Assembly: GCA_026004395.1 (NCBI GenBank)
Contig: BPJB01000001.1
Span: forward strand, 82,630-146,629
Reading direction: 5' to 3'
Source: Patescibacteria group bacterium
GTDB lineage: Bacteria; Patescibacteriota; Microgenomatia; Levybacterales; UBA12049
DNA length: 64,000 nt
The notes under the pieces are model-generated. The model saw only the letters and a list, made by a program, of their open reading frames with translations, did no database searches and had not been told where the DNA came from. The position numbers were made by a program, and so were the translations under genes. Positions 2,857 to 30,703 of the stretch are shown here, one piece after another (position 1 is the stretch's first letter; every line of letters starts with the position of its first letter).

Positions 2857-3498
2857 ATGGTAGCTGAACAAGAAGTCTGTAGATACTGCCAAATTCCACT
2901 AACTATACGTCAAACGCAACGTAAAGCTTCTCAGTTGACTAAACCATACTATTACACGGCGTATTTTTTTTGTCCATCGTGTCAGAGGATCTATCACAAT
3001 GATCAATTTAAGGTAATTAATAAAACAATGGATCTTTCTACACAGAAGAACCGAGAAAATAAATTATATGATGTTGAAATATGGACTGATGGAGCAAGCT
3101 TTAATAATGGACGGGAGAATGCTCAAGCTGCTTGGGCATTTGTCGCGTTGATACCTCACCAATCATCAAATAAAATTCTTCATGAAGAGTCTGGATTAGT
3201 TGAAGGAAAACAAACCAACAATCGAGGAGAAGCCTTCGCAATTTTTCATGCTCTCAAGTGGGCTGGGGAAAAAGGATATAAAAAAATCCGTATTCACACT
3301 GATAGTCAGATTACTCTTTATAATCTCGCAAAACATCCATTAAAAATAAAAGAAAATAGGGATATTTTTGAACAAATTTACAATGTTTTAAATAAGTATC
3401 AATTAGATGTTGATTATGTAAAAGTAGCTGGGCACTCTGGAGATACATACAACGAAAGAGCTGACAGACTTGCCAAGTCACGTATATTACAAACTTGA
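2857..3498 (+). CDS. rnhA: Ribonuclease HI with N-terminal CxxC...CPxC zinc-ribbon
   Basis: RNase H catalytic residues in the E. coli order (TDGA, NNRGE, HTDSQ, GHSG, NERAD). N-terminal ~50 aa has CRYC and CPSC pairs. Confidence 0.8.
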   Translation: MVAEQEVCRYCQIPLTIRQTQRKASQLTKPYYYTAYFFCPSCQRIYHNDQFKVINKTMDLSTQKNRENKLYDVEIWTDGASFNNGRENAQAAWAFVALIPHQSSNKILHEESGLVEGKQTNNRGEAFAIFHALKWAGEKGYKKIRIHTDSQITLYNLAKHPLKIKENRDIFEQIYNVLNKYQLDVDYVKVAGHSGDTYNERADRLAKSRILQT

Positions 3499-3532
3499 CA
3501 ACATCTCCCTTATACAGAGTATACTCATCAAC

Positions 3533-4735
3533 ATGAGGTTTAGTGAAAAAGAAAGGTTTTCACGACGAGCTTTTTTAGGAGGATTTTTGGGAGTAACACT
3601 AGGAGGAGAAATAACAAGAAGAATACAGCAAGGAGAATTTCCTTTTACCAAACATTATAAAGCATATGATTCTTATTGGCAGTTTCTTAAAGAAGGTGGA
3701 TTTCACTCAATAAGTACAGAACGAATTAAAAGCCTCTGTGGAATACCTCAAAAAAAAGAGTTGTCTTTCTTAAAAAGAGACTTATTGAAAGAAGAAGGAA
3801 ATGTTGAGTTTATATTTCATCAGGTTAAAGACAGCGATGTTATCGTTGATATTAGAGGTGTAGAAGATCCAACAATTTCTTTGTCTCTTGTTGAGATAGA
3901 ATTTGAAGATTTACTTTATCAGGTACCAATTCTTCAGACGGAGAACTATTGTACTAGATCAATTTTACTGCGGAATGTAAAAAAAGGAGAGAATATTTTT
4001 CGTTTGAGAGCTACGCCATTTACAAGAAGTCCAATTGAAAGTATTGGAGTTAATCTCTATAAATTGGAGGGAAGTCCACTCTTTCAGTCCATCCTTTCAA
4101 CAACACCTCAAATCGGAATGCGTGCTGATAATGAAGAATGGTATGGTAAAAGTGAGAACGAACAGGATATCAATAATAATCCACTCAATGATGTTCCTTT
4201 TTACGGAAGTGTTGCACTTAAGGAAAATAGCAATGGCGAGCTTCTTATTGAACACTGGACAGGATATTCAGCAGAAGATGGAGGTAGTTCTATCTATAAA
4301 CGTAAGAGACAGTATAACCGTTTATGGGATTATGAAGTGAGTTTCCTGGCAGTTGTCAATACCAGTGGTGATGTGTTGCGTACAGCTTACCAGGGAAGAA
4401 CACAGCGTGCACATCAAATTATAGATTTTGAAATATTTGATTCACCGATTGAGCGTACAGAGATCAATACCAGACTACAATCAATTGGAGATCATGGTAT
4501 GCTTTCTCCAGAGAATATATCATCAAGAGTTTTTTCTCTTGTCCCAGAGATACCATGGTTAAGAGATCCTAAGTATTTTGTTGAGACAGAACGTTCTCGT
4601 CGAATAATTGCCGCTAGAGAATATTGGGACGAACTACATAGAAATATCAGAGATTATGGTTTTCGTATAGGAGACGATTATACTCTTGAATTTTTAGCAG
4701 AGACATTGGATGAGTTAAATGATCCACGTTACTAA
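3533..4735 (+). CDS. hypothetical protein with twin-arginine-like N-terminus (FSRRAFLGGFLGVTLGG)
   Basis: Long ORF. The track start at 3470 is a TTG; first ATG at 3533. SRRxFL plus a hydrophobic stretch resembles the Tat consensus. No recognisable catalytic motifs. Confidence 0.5.
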   Translation: MRFSEKERFSRRAFLGGFLGVTLGGEITRRIQQGEFPFTKHYKAYDSYWQFLKEGGFHSISTERIKSLCGIPQKKELSFLKRDLLKEEGNVEFIFHQVKDSDVIVDIRGVEDPTISLSLVEIEFEDLLYQVPILQTENYCTRSILLRNVKKGENIFRLRATPFTRSPIESIGVNLYKLEGSPLFQSILSTTPQIGMRADNEEWYGKSENEQDINNNPLNDVPFYGSVALKENSNGELLIEHWTGYSAEDGGSSIYKRKRQYNRLWDYEVSFLAVVNTSGDVLRTAYQGRTQRAHQIIDFEIFDSPIERTEINTRLQSIGDHGMLSPENISSRVFSLVPEIPWLRDPKYFVETERSRRIIAAREYWDELHRNIRDYGFRIGDDYTLEFLAETLDELNDPRY

Positions 4736-4844
4736 GAGGGTTAAATTTGGTGAGTAAAGATAATTTTTATATAACTTATGATAAATCTGTAATCTAGAAC
4801 GATTGACAAAGAAAGGAATTTTTACTATCTTAAGGATTGATTAT

Positions 4845-5333
4845 ATGATTAATATAATATTGAAAATTTTAGCGTTCTTTTGGCCGTTAAGACCTGTATT
4901 TGCTCATTGTGATATTCCCTGTGGTATTTATGATCCTCATACAGCACAACTTGCAGCTCATACTGTACTGCGTATGACTCAACTAATTATGACATCGAAA
5001 GTGAATAATACGCAACAGTCAATACATGATATTTCTCGGTTTACAAAAGTAAAAGAAGAACACGCAGAACTTGTGAAACACGAAATTAGAGTGCTGTGGG
5101 GAGATTATTTTAAAGAGGAGCATCTTAAAGAATATCCTCATCTTCATGATTTAGTCTTTAAAACTCTCAAACTGGCATCAAAAGCAAGACAAGAAATAAA
5201 CGAAGATGTCGCCAAAGATCTTCTTTTACATGTTCAACAAATTGCAGAAATATTCTATAAAACAAAAGGTCTTAAACCTTATCGAGTCGCATCCTATTAT
5301 CCCACTGGACTTGAGATAGTGCAATATAAATAA
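4845..5333 (+). CDS. sodN: Nickel superoxide dismutase precursor (NiSOD)
   Basis: HCDIPCGIYDP after a 20-aa leader matches the NiSOD Ni-hook HCDLPCGVYDP. AAGGA Shine-Dalgarno 8 nt upstream of ATG 4845 (the track start at 4803 is a TTG). Confidence 0.8.
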   Translation: MINIILKILAFFWPLRPVFAHCDIPCGIYDPHTAQLAAHTVLRMTQLIMTSKVNNTQQSIHDISRFTKVKEEHAELVKHEIRVLWGDYFKEEHLKEYPHLHDLVFKTLKLASKARQEINEDVAKDLLLHVQQIAEIFYKTKGLKPYRVASYYPTGLEIVQYK

Positions 5334-5626
5334 TGCTCTTTTTTGCACTTTTTAAAGTATATGGTCATAGCATGATGCCAACAATTTCTCCTGGTCAGAG
5401 AGTTGCGGTAAGTGGTATTCCCTATCTTTTTAGCAAACCGAAGAAAGGAGATATTGTCCTTATAAAAGATCTTCAAAGTAATGCCTACTTTATCAAACGT
5501 ATAGCATATATACATGCTAATACATATACTGTCCTTGGAGACAATCCTTATGATAGTAAAGACAGCAGACAATTTGGGAGAATCCATTATTCTGCAATTG
5601 TGGGAAAAGTACTATTTTATTTTTAA
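5333..5626 (+). CDS. sodX: NiSOD maturation peptidase, minimal S26 signal-peptidase-like (SodX)
   Basis: S26 motifs: GHSMMPTI (catalytic Ser), IKRIAY (Lys), GDNPYDSKDSR. 97 aa with no TM segment. ATG overlaps the sodN stop (TAATG). Confidence 0.75.
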   Translation: MLFFALFKVYGHSMMPTISPGQRVAVSGIPYLFSKPKKGDIVLIKDLQSNAYFIKRIAYIHANTYTVLGDNPYDSKDSRQFGRIHYSAIVGKVLFYF

Positions 5627-5644
5627 TTTATTTATACTTACATT

Positions 5645-6190
5645 ATGGAATTATTTCTTTTAGGAGTAATAATAATTCTTCTTCTCTTTCTTCTTTCCAT
5701 GATATGGCCGCCTGATAGTCCCTGGTCTCCATGGTGGAGAACAAACAAAGTAACAGCTAAAAAAATTTGTAAACTTGCTAAGGTATCCTCAAACGATATG
5801 ATATATGATCTAGGCTGTGGAGACGGAACTGCACTCATAACCGCTGCTAAAATCAGTAATGCTTGTGGAATTGGTATTGAGATTGATCCTTTACGTGTAC
5901 TGATTGCAAAAATCAGAACTTTCATTCATGGTGTCTCACATAAGATCACGGTAGAAAGGGGAGATTTTTTTAAAGTAGATATTTCTCAAGCAACTGTTGT
6001 TTTTGTTTATTTAATTCCCAAAACATTGAAACGCCTAGAGAAAAAATTTCTTGCAGAGTTAAAGCCTGGAACTAAAATAGTAAGCTACGTATATCCTATT
6101 GATTATCTTCCTCTTTTGACCTATGACGTAGAGCATCAAATATACGTTTATGAGATTCCACATCAGTCAATTAACAGCGGAAAAGGTTAA
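5645..6190 (+). CDS. membrane-anchored class I SAM-dependent methyltransferase
   Basis: N-terminal TM helix, then DLGCGDG motif I, a GIEID acidic loop and a Rossmann-like pattern. Confidence 0.7.
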   Translation: MELFLLGVIIILLLFLLSMIWPPDSPWSPWWRTNKVTAKKICKLAKVSSNDMIYDLGCGDGTALITAAKISNACGIGIEIDPLRVLIAKIRTFIHGVSHKITVERGDFFKVDISQATVVFVYLIPKTLKRLEKKFLAELKPGTKIVSYVYPIDYLPLLTYDVEHQIYVYEIPHQSINSGKG

Positions 6191-7550
6191 TTCTATTTGT
6201 AAATCCTTCTGCTTTGAAGGGATAACTTGCAATAAGCGAACAATGTTGCTCAAGAAGTTGTTTATCAACAATCTCTGTCAACACATCTTCACGTATTGAA
6301 AATTCGGGATAGAATGCTCCTTGTGTCACAATTATCGAGTGTTGAGAAATAGCATCCTTGGTAAGTTGTGTTGCATTAAGAAAACCTTTACGAAAAATAT
6401 TATCATTTGTGTCTACAATATTATTAAGAAGCGGTGTATTTGAAAGATAAGCTAGTGCGGGTGTAACACTATTCACGCCATATACTGTTTTTGGTCTTTC
6501 TTGTTTGATATGGGACACAATTGTATCAATAGATTTCAGAGATTGCAGATCTGCAAATTTGGTAAGATAACTAAATAAATTATAGAAAATAAAGAAAAGC
6601 AATATTGTTGGAATAAACATTTTCTGAAGATGGAGTGTCTTATTAAGATATAAATAAAAAAAACTAAAAGATAATGCTAGAAAAGGGGTAACTTCGTTAA
6701 GATAAAGATAATAGGTGTCTTTATATATTAAGAAAAATAGAGTGCTGAAAAGCGATACAAGACCGAAAAACAGATTTTTTTTGATAGTCAAGATATTGAA
6801 GAGTAGCAGAATAACAAATGGAAAATCATGCGTTAAAAAAAACCAGATAATTTCTTTTTTGGGAATTCCTTGTGATCGAGTAAGCGAATATATAAAAACA
6901 TCTCTTATAAATTCATCCCTGGCAAAAATAAGCGATGGGATAAGTGTTAAGAGAGTACTCAACAGTAATCCATATAAAAATACAGCTAATTTGCTTATTT
7001 TTTTAAAAAGTAAGAATACAATATAGGCAAGAACTATTGGTAAAAAATATGCTTTAGTCATCAGAGAGAGACCCATCCAAAATCCTGTAAAGAAGAGCTG
7101 TTTTTTTTGAAAGAAGAAATAACTTATAACAGCAAAAAGTGATGCTAAGAATACTCCAGTCTGATGGTCAGATGTTGCGAGAATAATAAATGAGAATAAA
7201 TACAAAGCCACAACACTTATTCCCAAAAAAACATTCTTTGTTTGGTTTATAACAATAAAAAACATCACAATACTAATAAAAATAATTTCGATACTAGCTG
7301 TCAGATAATAAAATGAAAGATTTCCTTGTAATAAAAAGTAATAGAGAGCAGCTACATAAGGAAGCAAGGGAAAGTTGGTAAAGAAGACATCTTTATAAAG
7401 AATTTTTCCTTCTAAAAGAAGTTTCCCTGTGTAAAAATAGATATTGGTGTCGGATGCACGTATACTATTAGTTGAAAGTTTTAAAAGAAAAAAAGTAACA
7501 CATAAAATTAAGAGAATTAACAATGGTTTTTTAATATGCATAACTTTCAT
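6171..7550 (-). CDS. polytopic membrane protein, probable GT-C-type glycosyltransferase with C-terminal extracytoplasmic domain
   Basis: About 10 predicted TM helices, then a ~110 aa soluble C-terminus. Architecture typical of GT-C (ArnT/PMT-like) enzymes. No decisive motif. Confidence 0.4.
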   Translation of the reverse strand: MKVMHIKKPLLILLILCVTFFLLKLSTNSIRASDTNIYFYTGKLLLEGKILYKDVFFTNFPLLPYVAALYYFLLQGNLSFYYLTASIEIIFISIVMFFIVINQTKNVFLGISVVALYLFSFIILATSDHQTGVFLASLFAVISYFFFQKKQLFFTGFWMGLSLMTKAYFLPIVLAYIVFLLFKKISKLAVFLYGLLLSTLLTLIPSLIFARDEFIRDVFIYSLTRSQGIPKKEIIWFFLTHDFPFVILLLFNILTIKKNLFFGLVSLFSTLFFLIYKDTYYLYLNEVTPFLALSFSFFYLYLNKTLHLQKMFIPTILLFFIFYNLFSYLTKFADLQSLKSIDTIVSHIKQERPKTVYGVNSVTPALAYLSNTPLLNNIVDTNDNIFRKGFLNATQLTKDAISQHSIIVTQGAFYPEFSIREDVLTEIVDKQLLEQHCSLIASYPFKAEGFTNRINLFRC

Positions 7551-23624: not shown

Positions 23625-24254
23625 TTATCTTGCTTGCTCAATTGGGATAGGTTGTCTTAAAGGTAAAGACTCAGGACTTTCTGTTTTCAGACGAGCAGAT
23701 ACTATAGCTGAAAATACAGCGCGTGATGTTTGATTTTCAATTCGATCAATACTCACTGATTTGATCGGCGCATATGATCTAAGAGCGCTGATAAATTCAT
23801 TAAGACCACTAACAGAATTAGCTGTAATATCCATACGGACAGAAGCTGAAGTGACAGTAAGAGATGTGAAACTAACCTTTCCTGATGCGAAATCAACAAT
23901 TGACGTAAGAGTTGTTGTTACATCAGAAGATGACCTATCTAATCTGTCAGCCTCAGCAAGTCTTTCTTGAAGTGATCTGAATGATGCTTCTTGGGGTTTT
24001 AATGCCTCAACAATTGCTTGTTTGGCTTTAATTTTGTCATGCAGATCAATGAGCTGTCTATCTAGTGTAAAGCGATAGAGAAAAGCTGCAAGCGCAATGG
24101 TTTCTGTAAGAATGACCAGAAATCTGCCTCCTGTAATCGCCCATTGTATAAATACTTCCCAGGAAGCATTGCCCTGACGTTTAAGAAGATTGATAGATAG
24201 ATATTGTGCATTATTTTTTTGCATTGCAGTATTACTCCAACACCAAAATGCCAA
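23625..24254 (-). CDS. PilN-like membrane protein (INLL motif)
   Basis: N-terminal SINLLKRQ matches the PilN INLLP motif. Followed by one TM helix, a coiled coil and a periplasmic domain. Probable start at ATG 24224. Confidence 0.5.
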
Positions 24255-24368
24255 AGCTTATTTGGCCTATTTCCAGTCTATTTATTTTTCTTAGAAAAGT
24301 CAAAACAATTGCTATCTAGCAGGATAGAAAAAAGTATGTTATACTTAATTTATAAATTCGAAAATCGC

Positions 24369-24413
24369 AATCCGAATAGTTTCGTATTTCGCATTTCGGA
24401 TTTTATTTGTTAT
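24369..24413 (+). promoter_or_regulatory. 8-bp stem hairpin (AATCCGAA...TTCGGATT) plus T-rich tract immediately upstream of fusA
   Basis: Inverted repeat 24369-24376 / 24395-24402, followed by TTTATTTGTTAT and the fusA ATG. Confidence 0.3.
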
Positions 24414-26522
24414 ATGGCTGACACTTCACGTATTTATCCATTGGATAAAATTCGTAATATAGGAATTATCGCGCATATTGATGCAGGTAAAACAACAACC
24501 ACAGAGAGAATTTTGTTTTATACTGGTCGAACGTATAAGATTGGTGATATAGATGAGGGAAATACCCAGATGGACTGGATGGAGCAGGAGAGAGAACGAG
24601 GTATTACTATTGTGTCAGCTGCGACAACCACATTTTGGAGAGAGCATCGCATTAATATTATTGATACACCTGGTCATGTTGATTTTACTGCTGAAGTAGA
24701 ACGATCACTGCGTGTTCTTGATGGCGGAATTACAGTTCTTGATGCTGAGGAAGGAGTACAATCTCAGTCAGAAACTGTATGGAGGCAGGCAGATAAATAT
24801 AAAGTCCCTAGAATTTGCTTTGTGAACAAAATGGATAAATTAGGAGCAGATTTTCTTGGGACAGTAAAAAGTATTGAAGAAAGATTAGGAGCAAATCCTG
24901 CAATTATGGTGCTTCCTATTGGAGTAGAAAGTAGCTATGTAGGAAATGTTGATCTTTTAACTCGAAAGGCAATAAGGTGGGGATCAGATGAGCTTGGTGC
25001 AAAATTTGAGATTAGCGATGACATTCCCTCAGAGATGAAAGATCAAGTTGAGGACTACCGTGCCAAGTTAATTGAAAAGATTGCAGAAACTGATGATACG
25101 CTTCTTGAGAAATATCTTGGTGGAGAGGAGCTTACTGTTGAAGAATTAAAGAAAGCTCTTCGGGCAGCAGTTATCTCGTACAAGCTAGTTCCTGTCTATG
25201 CTGGAACATCTTTGCGTAATAAAGGTGTACAGCCGTTACTTGATGCTGTTGTTGATTATCTCCCTTCTCCATTGGATCTTAAAGAAATAAAAGGTACTCA
25301 TCCAAAAACAGGCGAAGAACAGGTAAGAAAGCTTACACTTGATGAGTCATTTTCAGGATTGGCATTCAAAATTCAAAACGATCCTCATGTTGGAAAATTG
25401 ACTTATTTTAGAGTTTATTCGGGTAAGATCTCTGCAGGTTCATATGTTTATAACAGCACAAAAGATATCAAAGAACGCGTAGGTCGTCTTCTTCTTATGC
25501 ACGCAAATCAACGCGAAGAAATAAAAGAAGCTTATGCGGGAGAGATTGTAGCAATTGTTGGTCTTAAGGATACAGGAACAGGAGACACACTCTGCGATGA
25601 GAATAATCCAATAGTTCTTGAAAAGATTTCCTTCCCAGAGCCTGTGATATCTCTTGCTATAGAACCCCAAACAAAGTCAGATCAAGAAAAGCTAGGATAT
25701 GCACTTAAGCGACTTACAGAGGAAGATCCAACGTTTTCAGTTAAAACAAATCCAGAAACAGGCCAAACAATAATCTCAGGAATTGGAGAGCTTCAACTGG
25801 AGATCATGGTAGATAGAATGAGAAGAGAATTCAATGTGGTCGCAAATGTTGGTGCTCCTCAAGTTGCTTATAAGGAGACATTTCAAACAACCGCTACAGG
25901 GGAGGGAAAGTATATTCGACAATCTGGAGGTAGAGGTCAGTATGGTCATTGCTGGCTTCGTATTGAACCTCTTCCCAGAGGATCAGGAATTGAGTTTGTT
26001 GATGAGATTAAAGGTGGAGTAATTCCAGCTGAGTTTGTAAAGGCTGTTGAAAAAGGTGTATATGAAACTCTGGAGAATGGTGTTCTTCTTGGTTATCCGG
26101 TAGTTGATGTAAGAGTCGCATGTTATGATGGTTCATACCATGAGGTTGATTCCTCAGAAGTCGCATTTAAGATTGCTGCTTCTCAGGCTATCCAAGCAGC
26201 ATCCAAAAAATCTGGGATTGATCTTCTTGAGCCAATTATGAAAGTTGAGGTCACAACTCCCTCAGAGTTTATGGGAGATATTATTGGTGATCTCTCATCC
26301 AAGAGAGGACAGATTTTGGGTACTGAAGAGAGAGCTCGCGCAACAATCATTAATGCTCTTGTACCACTTGCTGAGCTTTCAGGATACGCAACAACGCTTA
26401 GATCTATGTCTCAAGGGCGAGCAAGCTACTATATGGAGCCATCTCACTATGATGTTGTACCTCGAAATATTGTTGAGCAAATGCTTGCCAAATCCACATT
26501 TACTGGTCGCGTTGAATCTTAA
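24414..26522 (+). CDS. fusA: elongation factor G
   Basis: [38 protein letters not shown] matches the EF-G N-terminus. Full length ~702 aa. The longer track ORF from 24204 is an upstream in-frame extension, rejected. Confidence 0.95.
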
Positions 26523-27691: not shown

Positions 27692-28870
27692 ATGGCACGA
27701 AAAAGAATAAGTGAGTACAAAGCAAAAATGCTTCTTTTTGAAGCATTAGGTCTTCCCTATCAGGGAATACAGGTTAGAAATTCTGATCTATCTTTTTATA
27801 CTTCTCTAGATAATACCAAGACCTACGTTGTGAAGGTTGATCAAGGAGTGAAAAAACGATTTAAGCAGGGACTTATTCATTTAGATATTCACTCTGAAAT
27901 GCTTTTAGATTCAATAGAGGACTTGCGAAACAAAGGTTACTCTCAGTTTCTGATTGAACCATATTACAAGCACAAAGCAGAAGATGAGCGCTATCTTGCA
28001 CTAGAGCGAATCAGAGAAGGAATAGCCGTTTATGTCTCAAAAAAGGGAGGAATAGATATTGAAGAACAACAAAACTTTGTTCAACAATTTATTATTCCTC
28101 AAGATACCTATCAGGAAGTAGCCAAATATATTGGAATAGATGCCAAATTGGTTGAAAAAATTATAAAAGTAATGGATAAGTTCTATATCTCCTTTCTTGA
28201 GATAAACCCACTAGTTGTTAAAGAGAACAAGCTTTTATTTTTAGATCTTGCAGTTGAAGTAGACAGTGCAGGATCGTTTTTTGTAAAAGATGCGTGGAAT
28301 GAGAGAGATTTTATAGATTATGCTGTAGAGCATACAGTTGAGGAAGCGGTAGTTGAGGAATTATCCACTAGAAGTCAGGCTTCTTTTAAACTTGTCGTAC
28401 TTAATCCCAATGGATCTATTTTCATGCTTCTTTCTGGAGGTGGAGCAAGCATTGTCCTTGCTGATGAAGTATATAATCAAGGATTTGGAAAAGAACTTGC
28501 AAATTATGGAGAGTACAGCGGCAATCCCAATGCAGAGGAAACCTATATCTATACCAAACAGCTTTTGAGCTTATTATTAAAGTCAAAAGCACGAAACAAA
28601 ATTTTAATTATTGCCGGTGGAGTTGCTAATTTTACTGATATTCGAATTACATTTAGAGGTATTATTCAAGCGCTTACTGAGGTGAAGCATGAGCTTCAAA
28701 AACAAAATATTAAGGTGTATGTCAGGCGAGGCGGACCATATCAGGAGGAAGGACTTGCAATGATGAAAAGCTTTCTTGAAAAAGAAAAACTCCTTGGTGA
28801 CGTATCTGGACCCGAGATGGTACTAACCGATATCGTAGGAGAAGCTTTGCGCTTTCTAAAATCAGAATAG
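27692..28870 (+). CDS. aclB: ATP-citrate lyase small (beta) subunit, ATP-grasp/SucC-like
   Basis: Long identity blocks with the N-terminal half of human ACLY and Chlorobium AclB: FLIEPYYKH, ELANYGEYSGNPNAEETY, ILIIAGGVANFTDIRITFRGI, VYVRRGGPYQEEGL. Confidence 0.8.
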   Translation: MARKRISEYKAKMLLFEALGLPYQGIQVRNSDLSFYTSLDNTKTYVVKVDQGVKKRFKQGLIHLDIHSEMLLDSIEDLRNKGYSQFLIEPYYKHKAEDERYLALERIREGIAVYVSKKGGIDIEEQQNFVQQFIIPQDTYQEVAKYIGIDAKLVEKIIKVMDKFYISFLEINPLVVKENKLLFLDLAVEVDSAGSFFVKDAWNERDFIDYAVEHTVEEAVVEELSTRSQASFKLVVLNPNGSIFMLLSGGGASIVLADEVYNQGFGKELANYGEYSGNPNAEETYIYTKQLLSLLLKSKARNKILIIAGGVANFTDIRITFRGIIQALTEVKHELQKQNIKVYVRRGGPYQEEGLAMMKSFLEKEKLLGDVSGPEMVLTDIVGEALRFLKSE

Positions 28871-28909: not shown

Positions 28910-30703
28910 ATGTTTAACTTGGAAAAATTAAAACAAATACATCCCAGCATTATTGTTATTGGTAGTCATCCAGCAATTATTCAATCAATGTTGGATTTTG
29001 ACTATCTTTCAGGCAAAACTGATCCTAGTGTAAAAGCTATTCTTGCTGGTAATCGGAGATTTGAAAGATATTTTTTTGGTAAAAAAGAACTACTTATTCC
29101 AGTTTTCCCTACTCTTTCTGATATCCCTCAGTCAATTTTGGAGAGTATAACTTATTTTTTTAACACAACTTCAGGAAGAAGAGTTTTTGAATCAACACAG
29201 GAGGCACTTCAACTCTTACCCAATCTTTTAGGAGGGGTAATTTTTGCAGAAAATGTACCCGAGATTCATGCTTTAAAACTGTTTAATCTCAAAGAGAAAT
29301 CTAAAAAATTTTTTATTATTGGTCCCTCAAGTGTGGGATTGCTTATTCCTTCCTATCTTAAATTAGGTGCGATTGGAGGTGTTGATTATAGACAGCTTAT
29401 TGCATCTGAGGTCTTCACATCAGGCAATGTTGCCATTTTCTCAGCATCAGGAGGAATGACAAATGAGATTATCCGGATTGTTACTCAACAAGGAAAGAGG
29501 TTAAGTTTTGCTCTTGCGTTTGGTGGTGATCGCTTCCCTATTTTAACACCCAAAGATGCATTCTTAGCGGCAGAGGATGATAGCCAAACAGAGGCTATAC
29601 TCTATTTTGGTGAGATTGGTGGAACAGATGAATATGATCTTGCGAAGCTGCTACAGGAGAGAAAAGTAACAAAACAAGTAATTTGTTATATAGGAGGAAC
29701 AGTGGCAGAACTTTTTAAGACTCCTCTCCAATTCGGCCATGCAAAGGCAATGGCAAAAAAGGGCGAAGAGACAGCAAGAGCGAAAAGAGATGCACTCAGA
29801 AATGCAGGTGCCAGTGTGGCAGAGTCATTTTCAGAGTTTGTCAATATGATAAAATCACTTCCATCTGTTTCCAATAAACCAAGGAAAAACTATACTATCT
29901 ATATGAATGATTTAAAAGATCGACGCAGTGCATTAATTACAACAAGTATTTCTTACGATAAAGAAGGTAATCTATTAATTTTAGGTGAGGATCTTTTGGA
30001 ATTCACTAAATCACACTCATTTGCTAGCATTGTCGCTTGTCTTTTCTTAGGTAAGAAGGAGATTTCAACTGATCTTGAAGAATTCGTAGACTTTACTTTG
30101 AGAATTCTTGTGGACCATGGTCCATATGTTGCAGGAGCAGTAAATACAATTATTACGGCTCGATCTGGGCGTGATCTTGTTTCCAGTCTTGCCTCAGGAC
30201 TCTTAACTATTGGTCCACGTTTTGGAGGAGCTATTAATCAAGCAGCTGCCAATTGGTTAAGAGGAGTGAGAGATAATATTGCTCCATATGATTTTGTCGA
30301 AGAATTTGCAAGAAGTAGAGAATATATTGCAGGGATTGGACATAGAAAATATAGAGTTGATCTACCGGATCCACGTGTTGAGGAGATTATGAAATTTGTC
30401 AAAAGAGTTGATGATCAACGTTTTACAAATTATGCAAAAGCAGTTGAGGAGATTACAGTTGCAAAAAAGGGGAATTTAATTTTGAATATTGATGGAGCAA
30501 TTGCTGCAGTATTATTGGATATCCTCAAGGAGAAAGAAGAGATGACGTATGACAGCCTACAAAGACTTATTGATAATGAATTTTTTAATGCACTTTTCGT
30601 TCTTTCAAGAAGTGTAGGATTTATTGCCCATTTTCTTGATCAGAAACGTTTAGATCAAGGACTTTTTCGACTGGATGAAGAAGATGTAGCGTACGTAAAA
30701 TAA
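28910..30703 (+). CDS. aclA: ATP-citrate lyase large (alpha) subunit (CoA-binding/SucD-like plus citryl-CoA lyase domain)
   Basis: Matches the ACLY C-terminal half: MLDFDY, ELLIPVF, SASGGMTNEI, GGDRFP, YFGEIGGTDEY, LQFGHAKA (phospho-His loop), VDHGPYVAGAVNTIITARSGRDLVSSLASGLLTIGPRFGGA, GIGHRKYRVDLPDPRV, SRSVGFIAHFLDQKRLDQGLFR. Confidence 0.8.
   Translation: MFNLEKLKQIHPSIIVIGSHPAIIQSMLDFDYLSGKTDPSVKAILAGNRRFERYFFGKKELLIPVFPTLSDIPQSILESITYFFNTTSGRRVFESTQEALQLLPNLLGGVIFAENVPEIHALKLFNLKEKSKKFFIIGPSSVGLLIPSYLKLGAIGGVDYRQLIASEVFTSGNVAIFSASGGMTNEIIRIVTQQGKRLSFALAFGGDRFPILTPKDAFLAAEDDSQTEAILYFGEIGGTDEYDLAKLLQERKVTKQVICYIGGTVAELFKTPLQFGHAKAMAKKGEETARAKRDALRNAGASVAESFSEFVNMIKSLPSVSNKPRKNYTIYMNDLKDRRSALITTSISYDKEGNLLILGEDLLEFTKSHSFASIVACLFLGKKEISTDLEEFVDFTLRILVDHGPYVAGAVNTIITARSGRDLVSSLASGLLTIGPRFGGAINQAAANWLRGVRDNIAPYDFVEEFARSREYIAGIGHRKYRVDLPDPRVEEIMKFVKRVDDQRFTNYAKAVEEITVAKKGNLILNIDGAIAAVLLDILKEKEEMTYDSLQRLIDNEFFNALFVLSRSVGFIAHFLDQKRLDQGLFRLDEEDVAYVK

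Follow-up and report, generated by a model that had tools for sequence, protein, structure and literature searches.

Known nickel superoxide dismutases (NiSODs) are cytoplasmic, and the protease SodX activates them by cutting the preprotein (PMC8346466, PMC3919588). Among small genomes, those of marine cyanobacteria are cases in which NiSOD can be the only superoxide dismutase (SOD) (PMC8346466). NiSOD clades of Patescibacteria have already been described (Sutherland et al., bioRxiv 10.1101/2021.01.12.426412); they sit within Chloroflexota sequences and were in turn the source of transfers to Woesearchaea. NiSOD was noted in Saccharibacteria in 2018 (PMC6031116). Here we describe a sodN-sodX gene pair, coding for a NiSOD precursor and its maturation protease, on a 64-kb stretch of contig BPJB01000001.1 (hereafter the window, meaning the whole stretch that was analysed). 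We posit, with a probability of about 0.85, that the pair forms a canonical cytoplasmic NiSOD system, consisting of sodN and a dedicated protease gene, in a Microgenomates (Levybacteria-like) bacterium of the Candidate Phyla Radiation (CPR). It is an ordinary sodN-sodX pair and a further member of the Patescibacteria NiSOD clade that is already described.

Identity of the sodN-sodX pair

The genes, the parts of the precursor and the site in front of them are as follows (aa, amino acids; nt, nucleotides):
4845-5333, + strand: sodN open reading frame (ORF), from the ATG at 4845 to the stop codon ending at 5333; 162-aa precursor, reading MINIILKILAFFWPLRPVFA and then HCDIPCGIYDP
4845..4904, + strand: SodN propeptide MINIILKILAFFWPLRPVFA, 20 aa, with a short helix, W-P-L-R-P, and V-F-A before the putative cleavage site
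4905..5333 (stop codon included), + strand: mature NiSOD, 142 aa: Ni-hook HCDIPCGIY, four-helix bundle, clade-specific C-terminal beta-hairpin
5333..5626, + strand: sodX, S26-family maturation protease, 97 aa, with Ser13 (GHSMMPT), Lys55 (FIKRI) and GDN...SKDSR, and without a membrane anchor
4803..4831, + strand: promoter-like site TTGACA-17 nt-TATCTT, 10/12 matches and the best in the region; putative function

Both products were assigned by family models. SodN matched Sod_Ni of Pfam (PF09055) with 148.6 bits (E 1.7e-43, cut-off 25) and the NCBIfam equivalog TIGR02753 (sodN) with 155.8 bits against a cut-off of 90. SodX matched Peptidase_S26 with 71.4 bits and, by a narrow margin, the equivalog TIGR02754 (sod_Ni_protease; 67.1 bits, cut-off 63.25, model positions 2-89 of 90), as well as the generic signal-peptidase model TIGR02227 (74.3 bits, cut-off 47). 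An earlier prediction made from the sequence alone (the original prediction) had named the pair sodN-sodX, and the two equivalog matches confirm this assignment.

The Ni-hook HCDIPCGIY occupies precursor residues 21-29, directly after the leader. In an alignment of 46 homologues, which also served as input for AlphaFold2 (AF2), residues H21, C22, D23, P25, C26, G27 and Y29 (His1, Cys2, Asp3, Pro5, Cys6, Gly7 and Tyr9 of the mature protein) are invariant; the D-Y-F-K motif is kept in the window SodN. Homology runs well past the hook, with residues 21-141 aligned by phmmer to residues 1-115 of the 117-aa Streptomyces enzyme (1t6u/1q0d, E ~3e-24). The AF2 model has a mean pLDDT (predicted local distance difference test) of 91.7, and its best 16 matches in the PDB are all NiSOD chains, with target-normalised template modelling (TM) scores of 0.89-0.93 and root-mean-square deviations of 1.6-2.4 A, while the next match has an E value of 0.13. 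The Ni-hook originally proposed is thus borne out, and homology continues beyond it. A C-terminal extension, TKG..P.RVKS.YPTG.EIV, is conserved throughout the clade with a near-invariant Y-P-T and is modelled as a beta-hairpin (precursor residues 145-161, window positions 5276-5333, pLDDT ~93); mature SodN of the clade is mostly 137-155 aa long. The window SodN is a candidate for a nickel-binding, presumably hexameric protein with SOD activity.

The catalytic boxes of SodX, GHSMMPT, FIKRI and GDNPYDSKDSR, align to GESMDPT, YVKRV and GDNREVSKDSR of Staphylococcus SpsB. Its ATG shares one base with sodN, namely the final A of the stop codon TAA, so that the stop/start overlap TAATG reported earlier does lie at position 5333. 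The description of SodX as an anchorless S26 protease stands as well: the most hydrophobic 19-aa window has a mean Kyte-Doolittle value of 1.03, and because there is just a single codon between the nearest in-frame stop upstream and the ATG (stop-to-stop segment from 5330), no corrected gene model can give the protein an anchor.

The arrangement is widespread among relatives. A survey of adjacency and junctions covered 80 loci of GTDB species, retrieved via SodN, and a SodX homologue adjoins sodN in 75 of them. In the CPR loci sodX lies directly downstream on the same strand as sodN, and in most of these SodX has 90-101 aa and no hydrophobic segment. In 21 related loci the final base of the sodN stop is also the first base of the sodX start; the two codons abut in 8 loci, and the overlap is 4 nt in 4. 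According to this survey, a minimal protease with overlapping genes is the rule for the clade, and translational coupling of sodN and sodX would be a reasonable reading of the junction. SodX proteins of Archaea and Chloroflexi are longer (~110-190 aa) and divergently transcribed. We considered transmembrane anchors on these archaeal and Chloroflexi proteins and rejected them, as the hydrophobic N-termini are marginal (maximum 1.8) and none makes a convincing anchor.

Two SodX homologues carry additional domains. At 6453-7163 of locus L081 (Patescibacteria metagenome-assembled genome, contig JAHJZF010000021.1), the SodX beside sodN continues in frame into a C-terminal membrane domain of vitamin K epoxide reductase (VKOR) type (Pfam VKOR, 87 bits, residues 102-223); this single case may reflect true tethering of SodX to the membrane or an artefact of assembly. 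The homologue at 6512-6976 of locus L019 has a C-terminal CxxC...CxxC tail resembling a zinc ribbon, with weak Zn_Ribbon matches.

Host and relatives

The window has a G+C content of ~35% and contains a block of genes for ribosomal proteins, SecY and RpoA together with typical CPR gene content. The neighbourhood of the pair is collinear with loci titled Levybacteria, including clpB, rnhA, a methyltransferase gene, a femAB-like gene, uvrD, tpiA and lytR. The host is an ultra-small CPR bacterium of the Microgenomates/Levybacteria type. The closest named SodN sequences belong to Candidatus Levybacteria, Daviesbacteria and Microgenomates, and the top GTDB representative is 68% identical. An identical SodN is encoded on a short, independent Logan contig (run DRR873022), and a homologue cluster with 97% identity carries the same leader.

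NiSOD had been called uncommon outside actinobacteria, cyanobacteria and some marine bacteria in the original prediction. This view is outdated, as the protein database holds 6,649 clusters of SodN homologues at 90% identity and the nearest relatives beyond CPR are found in DPANN, Thaumarchaeota, Thermoplasmata and Chloroflexi (see also 10.1101/2021.01.12.426412).

Start codon and promoter of sodN

The promoter-like site ends 13 nt before the ATG at 4845, although the scan that found it was not enriched overall over shuffled sequences (8 sites found, 6.8 expected). Boxes similar to a -10 element lie 6-13 nt before the sodN ATG in many relatives, regions L002-L019 among them, and no Shine-Dalgarno motif was present between box and ATG in the upstream regions of these relatives. 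Judging from the position of the promoter-like site, the 5' untranslated region of the sodN mRNA is probably very short or missing. The spacing of the boxes points to sodN mRNAs that are leaderless, or nearly so, in this CPR lineage.

A longer leader of 34 aa, starting at an upstream TTG (4803), was considered and rejected, since this TTG forms the start of the TTGACA -35 hexamer of the best promoter match. For the same reason, and because the -10 boxes of relatives lie just before the ATG, the model with a start at ATG 4845 and a 20-aa leader stands. An Rfam scan of the window returned nothing at the gathering threshold.

Properties of the leader peptide

Leader statistics were collected from 113 close homologues, 86 diverse representatives of the family and 94 loci with DNA. 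With a grand average of hydropathy (GRAVY) of 1.57, the window leader ranks second among the 113 close homologues, whose median is 0.77 and maximum 1.79. None of the 86 diverse representatives reaches its value (median 0.37, maximum 1.46), and it is the most hydrophobic of the 94 loci. The description of the leader as unusually hydrophobic is therefore correct. The contrast that had been drawn with a short, hydrophilic Streptomyces leader is not, as the actinobacterial-type leaders MSVLSRLFAPTAVAHA, MFSHLFAAPVQVSA and MLARWFTPTISVSA in the representative set have GRAVY values of 0.8-1.1 at 14-16 aa, and a leader of 20 aa is the norm in this clade (median 19 aa).

In its design the leader follows the family. 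A Pro occurs at -9 to -5 in 110/113 close homologues, position -3 is A, V or I in all 113, position -2 is aromatic in 111, and position -1 is Ala in 109. The W-P-L-R-P-V-F-A of the window matches every conserved position, and the same layout is found in far less hydrophobic homologues, with GRAVY values down to -0.14. AF2 predicts a helix at precursor residues 2-12 and a coil of lower confidence at residues 13-31; the hydrophobic moment of the leader is 0.46 and its mean hydrophobicity 0.75.

The leader was compared with signal peptides by a heuristic (runs without K, R, D or E, placement of charged residues and motifs), for which N-termini of signal or anchor type were taken from the same window; by this heuristic it looks weak as a signal peptide. 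A Sec signal peptide has an n-region with positive charge, an unbroken hydrophobic h-region of ~10-15 residues and a c-region free of charges. In the window leader, a Lys lies in the middle of the helix and an Arg at -5, and the longest run without charged residues comprises 8 residues (ILAFFWPL), below the clade median of 9. The corresponding runs are 15-29 residues long in the five clearest signal or anchor N-termini of the window (LytR, GH18, beta-lactamase, an Ig-domain protein and PilO) and 12 residues in a candidate resembling substrates of the twin-arginine translocation (Tat) pathway at 3470. The twin-arginine motif S/T-R-R-x-F-L-K is absent from MINIILKILAFFWPLRPVFA, which contains no RR.

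Considering the leaders compared here, we take the extra hydrophobicity to be an extreme, specific to this lineage, of a helix that varies under loose constraint, and no targeting signal. In quantitative terms the leader is a true outlier.

Proposed working and alternative explanations

We propose that sodN and sodX are co-transcribed from the promoter that abuts the sodN ATG and that ribosomes probably re-initiate at the overlapping TAATG to translate sodX. The soluble, 97-aa Ser/Lys protease SodX would recognise the leader by its short helix, Pro and V-F-A, and would cut after Ala20. Such a cleavage site is suggested by the need for His21 to become residue 1, and a cut directly before His1 also agrees with the A/V/I-aromatic-Ala|His motif and, by analogy, with the literature on Streptomyces and Prochlorococcus (PMC3919588, PMC8346466). 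The free amine of the new N-terminus, the Cys2 amide and the thiolates of Cys2 and Cys6 would then fold around Ni as the Ni-hook, and the mature four-helix-bundle protein, presumably as a hexamer, would dismutate superoxide in the cytoplasm. Cleavage is placed in the cytoplasm because SodX, on which the exposure of His1 depends, is a soluble protein without an export signal. Cleaved SodN has no remaining targeting sequence.

Several observations weigh against this reading. Pfam scans of the window, which covered nearly all ORFs of at least 120 aa and the ribosomal block at 38-51 kb by its largest ORFs, yielded no Ni/Co transporter families. In the alignment, Glu17 and Arg47 of the second sphere of the Streptomyces enzyme read as Ala and His in the window SodN. 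The leader is a genuine hydrophobicity outlier, and AT-rich codon drift as the source of its hydrophobicity is unsupported (Spearman rho -0.05, p 0.61, 94 loci). Also, the succession of K7, ILAFFWPL and RPVFA can be read as a minimal signal peptide with n-, h- and c-regions.

The last point leads to the extracytoplasmic NiSOD that had been raised in the original prediction, with the leader as a Sec signal and pre-SodN exported and cleaved outside the membrane to yield an enzyme at the surface or in a periplasm-like space. Such a route would fit a leader that has the highest or near-highest hydrophobicity of the ~200 SodN leaders compared, and in which a Lys precedes 8 hydrophobic residues without charge and then a V-x-A cleavage motif; the window also encodes SecY. 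However, an h-like stretch of 8 residues falls short of the 15-29 of the clearest signal or anchor N-termini, the Arg at -5 counts against export, being disfavoured in Sec substrates, and RR is missing for Tat, the usual route of cofactor-loaded proteins. The layout of the leader is moreover that of much less hydrophobic family members, SodX, with neither anchor nor signal, would have its active site in the cytoplasm, the Ni-hook requires reduced Cys thiolates, and known NiSODs are cytoplasmic (PMC8346466). The export claim is not borne out by these findings, and we regard it as highly improbable. We would call it unlikely that the leader, as an amphipathic and hydrophobic segment, transiently parks the precursor, or a complex of SodX and precursor, on the cytoplasmic face of the membrane near a Ni importer, from where cleavage would free the soluble enzyme. 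The predicted N-terminal helix with its hydrophobic moment and mean hydrophobicity would suit such a role, and the SodX-VKOR fusion of L081 shows that a membrane-tethered SodX can exist, but the fusion is one case with a possible assembly or annotation artefact, most homologous leaders are far less hydrophobic, and no Ni importer lies beside the cassette, unlike sodT in marine cyanobacteria (PMC4284471); the idea is pure inference.

It seems very unlikely to us that the exceptionally hydrophobic leader is functional in an ultra-small, episymbiotic CPR cell, in that it holds pre-NiSOD at the membrane or inserts it there for membrane-proximal or surface-exposed protection from superoxide, or couples maturation to Ni import. 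If this were true, the SodX-VKOR fusion of L081 would be a second indication that NiSOD maturation is linked to the membrane in this radiation. Least probable of all is a decaying or non-functional acquisition whose odd leader stems from relaxed selection. An outlying leader and the accessory nature of the cassette, which is missing from several close relatives, could be taken in this sense, but both ORFs are intact, the hook, Tyr9, D-Y-F-K and the Ser/Lys residues are all conserved, and positions -1, -2 and -3 and the Pro of the leader agree with the consensus. The strong promoter-like site, the 97%-identical cluster with the same leader and the identical protein on a contig of an independent run speak against decay as well. 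The canonical cytoplasmic system remains our preferred reading.

An accessory cassette at a fixed site

In order to compare the gene neighbourhoods, metagenome contigs were probed with the downstream methyltransferase. They share a backbone of clpB-rnhA-[variable]-methyltransferase-(membrane protein)-femAB-uvrD. Where enough upstream sequence was available (32 metagenome loci), sodN-sodX occupies the variable slot in 24 and is missing in 8. In five of the eight loci without the cassette (L085, L096, L103, L112, L115), rnhA is the nearest recognisable upstream gene, and it abuts the methyltransferase gene in L096 and L103. Two others (L082, L087) have only a homologue of a protein with a Tat motif in the slot, and in L104 no upstream backbone gene was recognised. 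By this distribution sodN-sodX is an accessory cassette, which close relatives either carry or lack at one fixed variable site, with rnhA on one side and the methyltransferase gene on the other; this is a detail added here. The pattern fits the picture of horizontal gene transfer in the literature, where NiSOD is described as spread by such transfer among subsurface lineages (10.1101/2021.01.12.426412).

Three neighbouring genes are relevant to the cassette:
3470-4735 (probable true start Met 3533), + strand: Tat-motif protein, 400 aa, with twin-arginine-like N-terminus MRFSEKERFSRRAFLGGFLGVTLGG; precedes sodN
5645..6190, + strand: class I S-adenosylmethionine-dependent methyltransferase with an N-terminal transmembrane helix, assigned by family matches; conserved backbone gene
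6171-7550, - strand: multipass membrane protein, 459 aa, with a soluble C-terminal part of ~110 aa; conserved in the closest relatives

None of these neighbours is a Ni permease of the SodT/UreH type. The Tat-motif protein had no Pfam match even at E<=5; its homologues occur in the rnhA-methyltransferase slot of L082, L087 and L088, with or without sodN-sodX, and L088 has the Tat-motif protein together with sodN-sodX, as in the window. The best named match of the methyltransferase is the archaeal protein-lysine N-methyltransferase NF041081, whose cut-off of 200 bits it does not reach (97 bits). Its gene lies directly after sodX, often with overlapping stop and start codons, in 23 related loci (22 GTDB species and the L001 contig) and in 24 of the 32 metagenome loci. 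We considered it as a third component of the SOD system and rejected this as unproven, because the gene also follows directly after rnhA or the Tat-like gene where sodN-sodX is missing, and the whole region is syntenic. The variable presence of the cassette at one site speaks for backbone synteny, not function, as the basis of the linkage, and the methyltransferase is probably outside the SOD system. The gene of the membrane protein overlaps the methyltransferase gene tail-to-tail by 20 nt at its 3' end. As a SodT-like Ni permease this protein was rejected, because it has no Pfam match at E<=5 and occurs in loci without sodN-sodX. It also shows no similarity to the two PMT_2 proteins of the window.

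By its cassette, this Levybacteria-like CPR organism is marked out as equipped for exposure to oxygen and as nickel-dependent; the Pfam-scanned ORFs of the window contain no other SOD. This agrees with the published idea of SOD genes tracking oxic niches in Patescibacteria (PMC8672522), and the presence or absence of sodN-sodX could serve as a simple marker of oxygen adaptation among closely related CPR populations. The understanding of how NiSOD works is unchanged by the window pair.

Further observations in the window

A two-subunit pair resembling ATP-citrate lyase is encoded on the + strand at 27692-28870 and 28910-30703, which is unexpected in a metabolically reduced, Microgenomates-type CPR genome. 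The first subunit matches Citrate_bind (198.7 bits) and the ATP-grasp domain Citrate_synth_N (98 bits), and the second Citrate_synt, Ligase_CoA and Succ_CoA_lig. A brief search of the literature yielded nothing specific. In the ORF of elongation factor G (24204-26522, + strand), the listed TTG start lies ~75 codons upstream of the GTP_EFTU domain (residues 82-355), and the ORF overlaps the end of an opposite-strand ORF (23625-24254). The true start is probably further downstream than the listed TTG.

Comparison with known systems

The leader of Streptomyces NiSOD has 14 aa and that of the window 20 aa. As in the NiSOD of Streptomyces coelicolor and S. seoulensis (1T6U, 1Q0D; SodN/SodX SCO5254/SCO5255), the window SodN has an HCDxPCGxY hook behind a short leader with small-x-Ala at its end, and loss of this leader would expose the hook. 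It also shares the four-helix bundle (TM 0.89-0.93), ~38-40% identity and the D-Y-F-K motif, and a dedicated S26-type protease gene adjoins. The window SodN differs from the Streptomyces enzyme in a 6-residue loop insertion, in the conserved C-terminal beta-hairpin of ~21 aa that the 117-aa Streptomyces protein does not have, and in the replacement of Glu17/Arg47 by Ala/His. Whereas an intergenic region is conserved between the genes in Streptomyces (PMC3919588), the two genes of the window overlap on the same strand.

Like sodN-sodX-sodT of the marine cyanobacteria Prochlorococcus and Synechococcus, the window cassette combines sodN with a cognate sodX, which is required for maturation. Unlike that cluster, which includes the permease gene sodT (PMC4284471), it has no adjoining gene for a permease of the SodT/UreH type. 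With type I signal peptidases (LepB/SpsB, Peptidase S26), SodX shares the boxes of the Ser/Lys dyad, as well as small residues at -1 and -3 of the substrate after a helical hydrophobic segment. It differs from them in being a catalytic core of ~90 aa without a transmembrane anchor and with a single dedicated substrate, predicted to be cytoplasmic.

By its nearest relatives, the window SodN belongs to the Patescibacteria/Chloroflexota NiSOD clade (10.1101/2021.01.12.426412); with identities of 45-68%, these are Levybacteria and Daviesbacteria, then DPANN, Thermoplasmata, Thaumarchaeota and Chloroflexi. The patchy distribution, resembling horizontal transfer, agrees with that clade too. Leaders and SodX are terms that do not occur in that work. 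The leader statistics, the conserved gene junction and the fixed insertion site add detail to this clade, and the system is the same.

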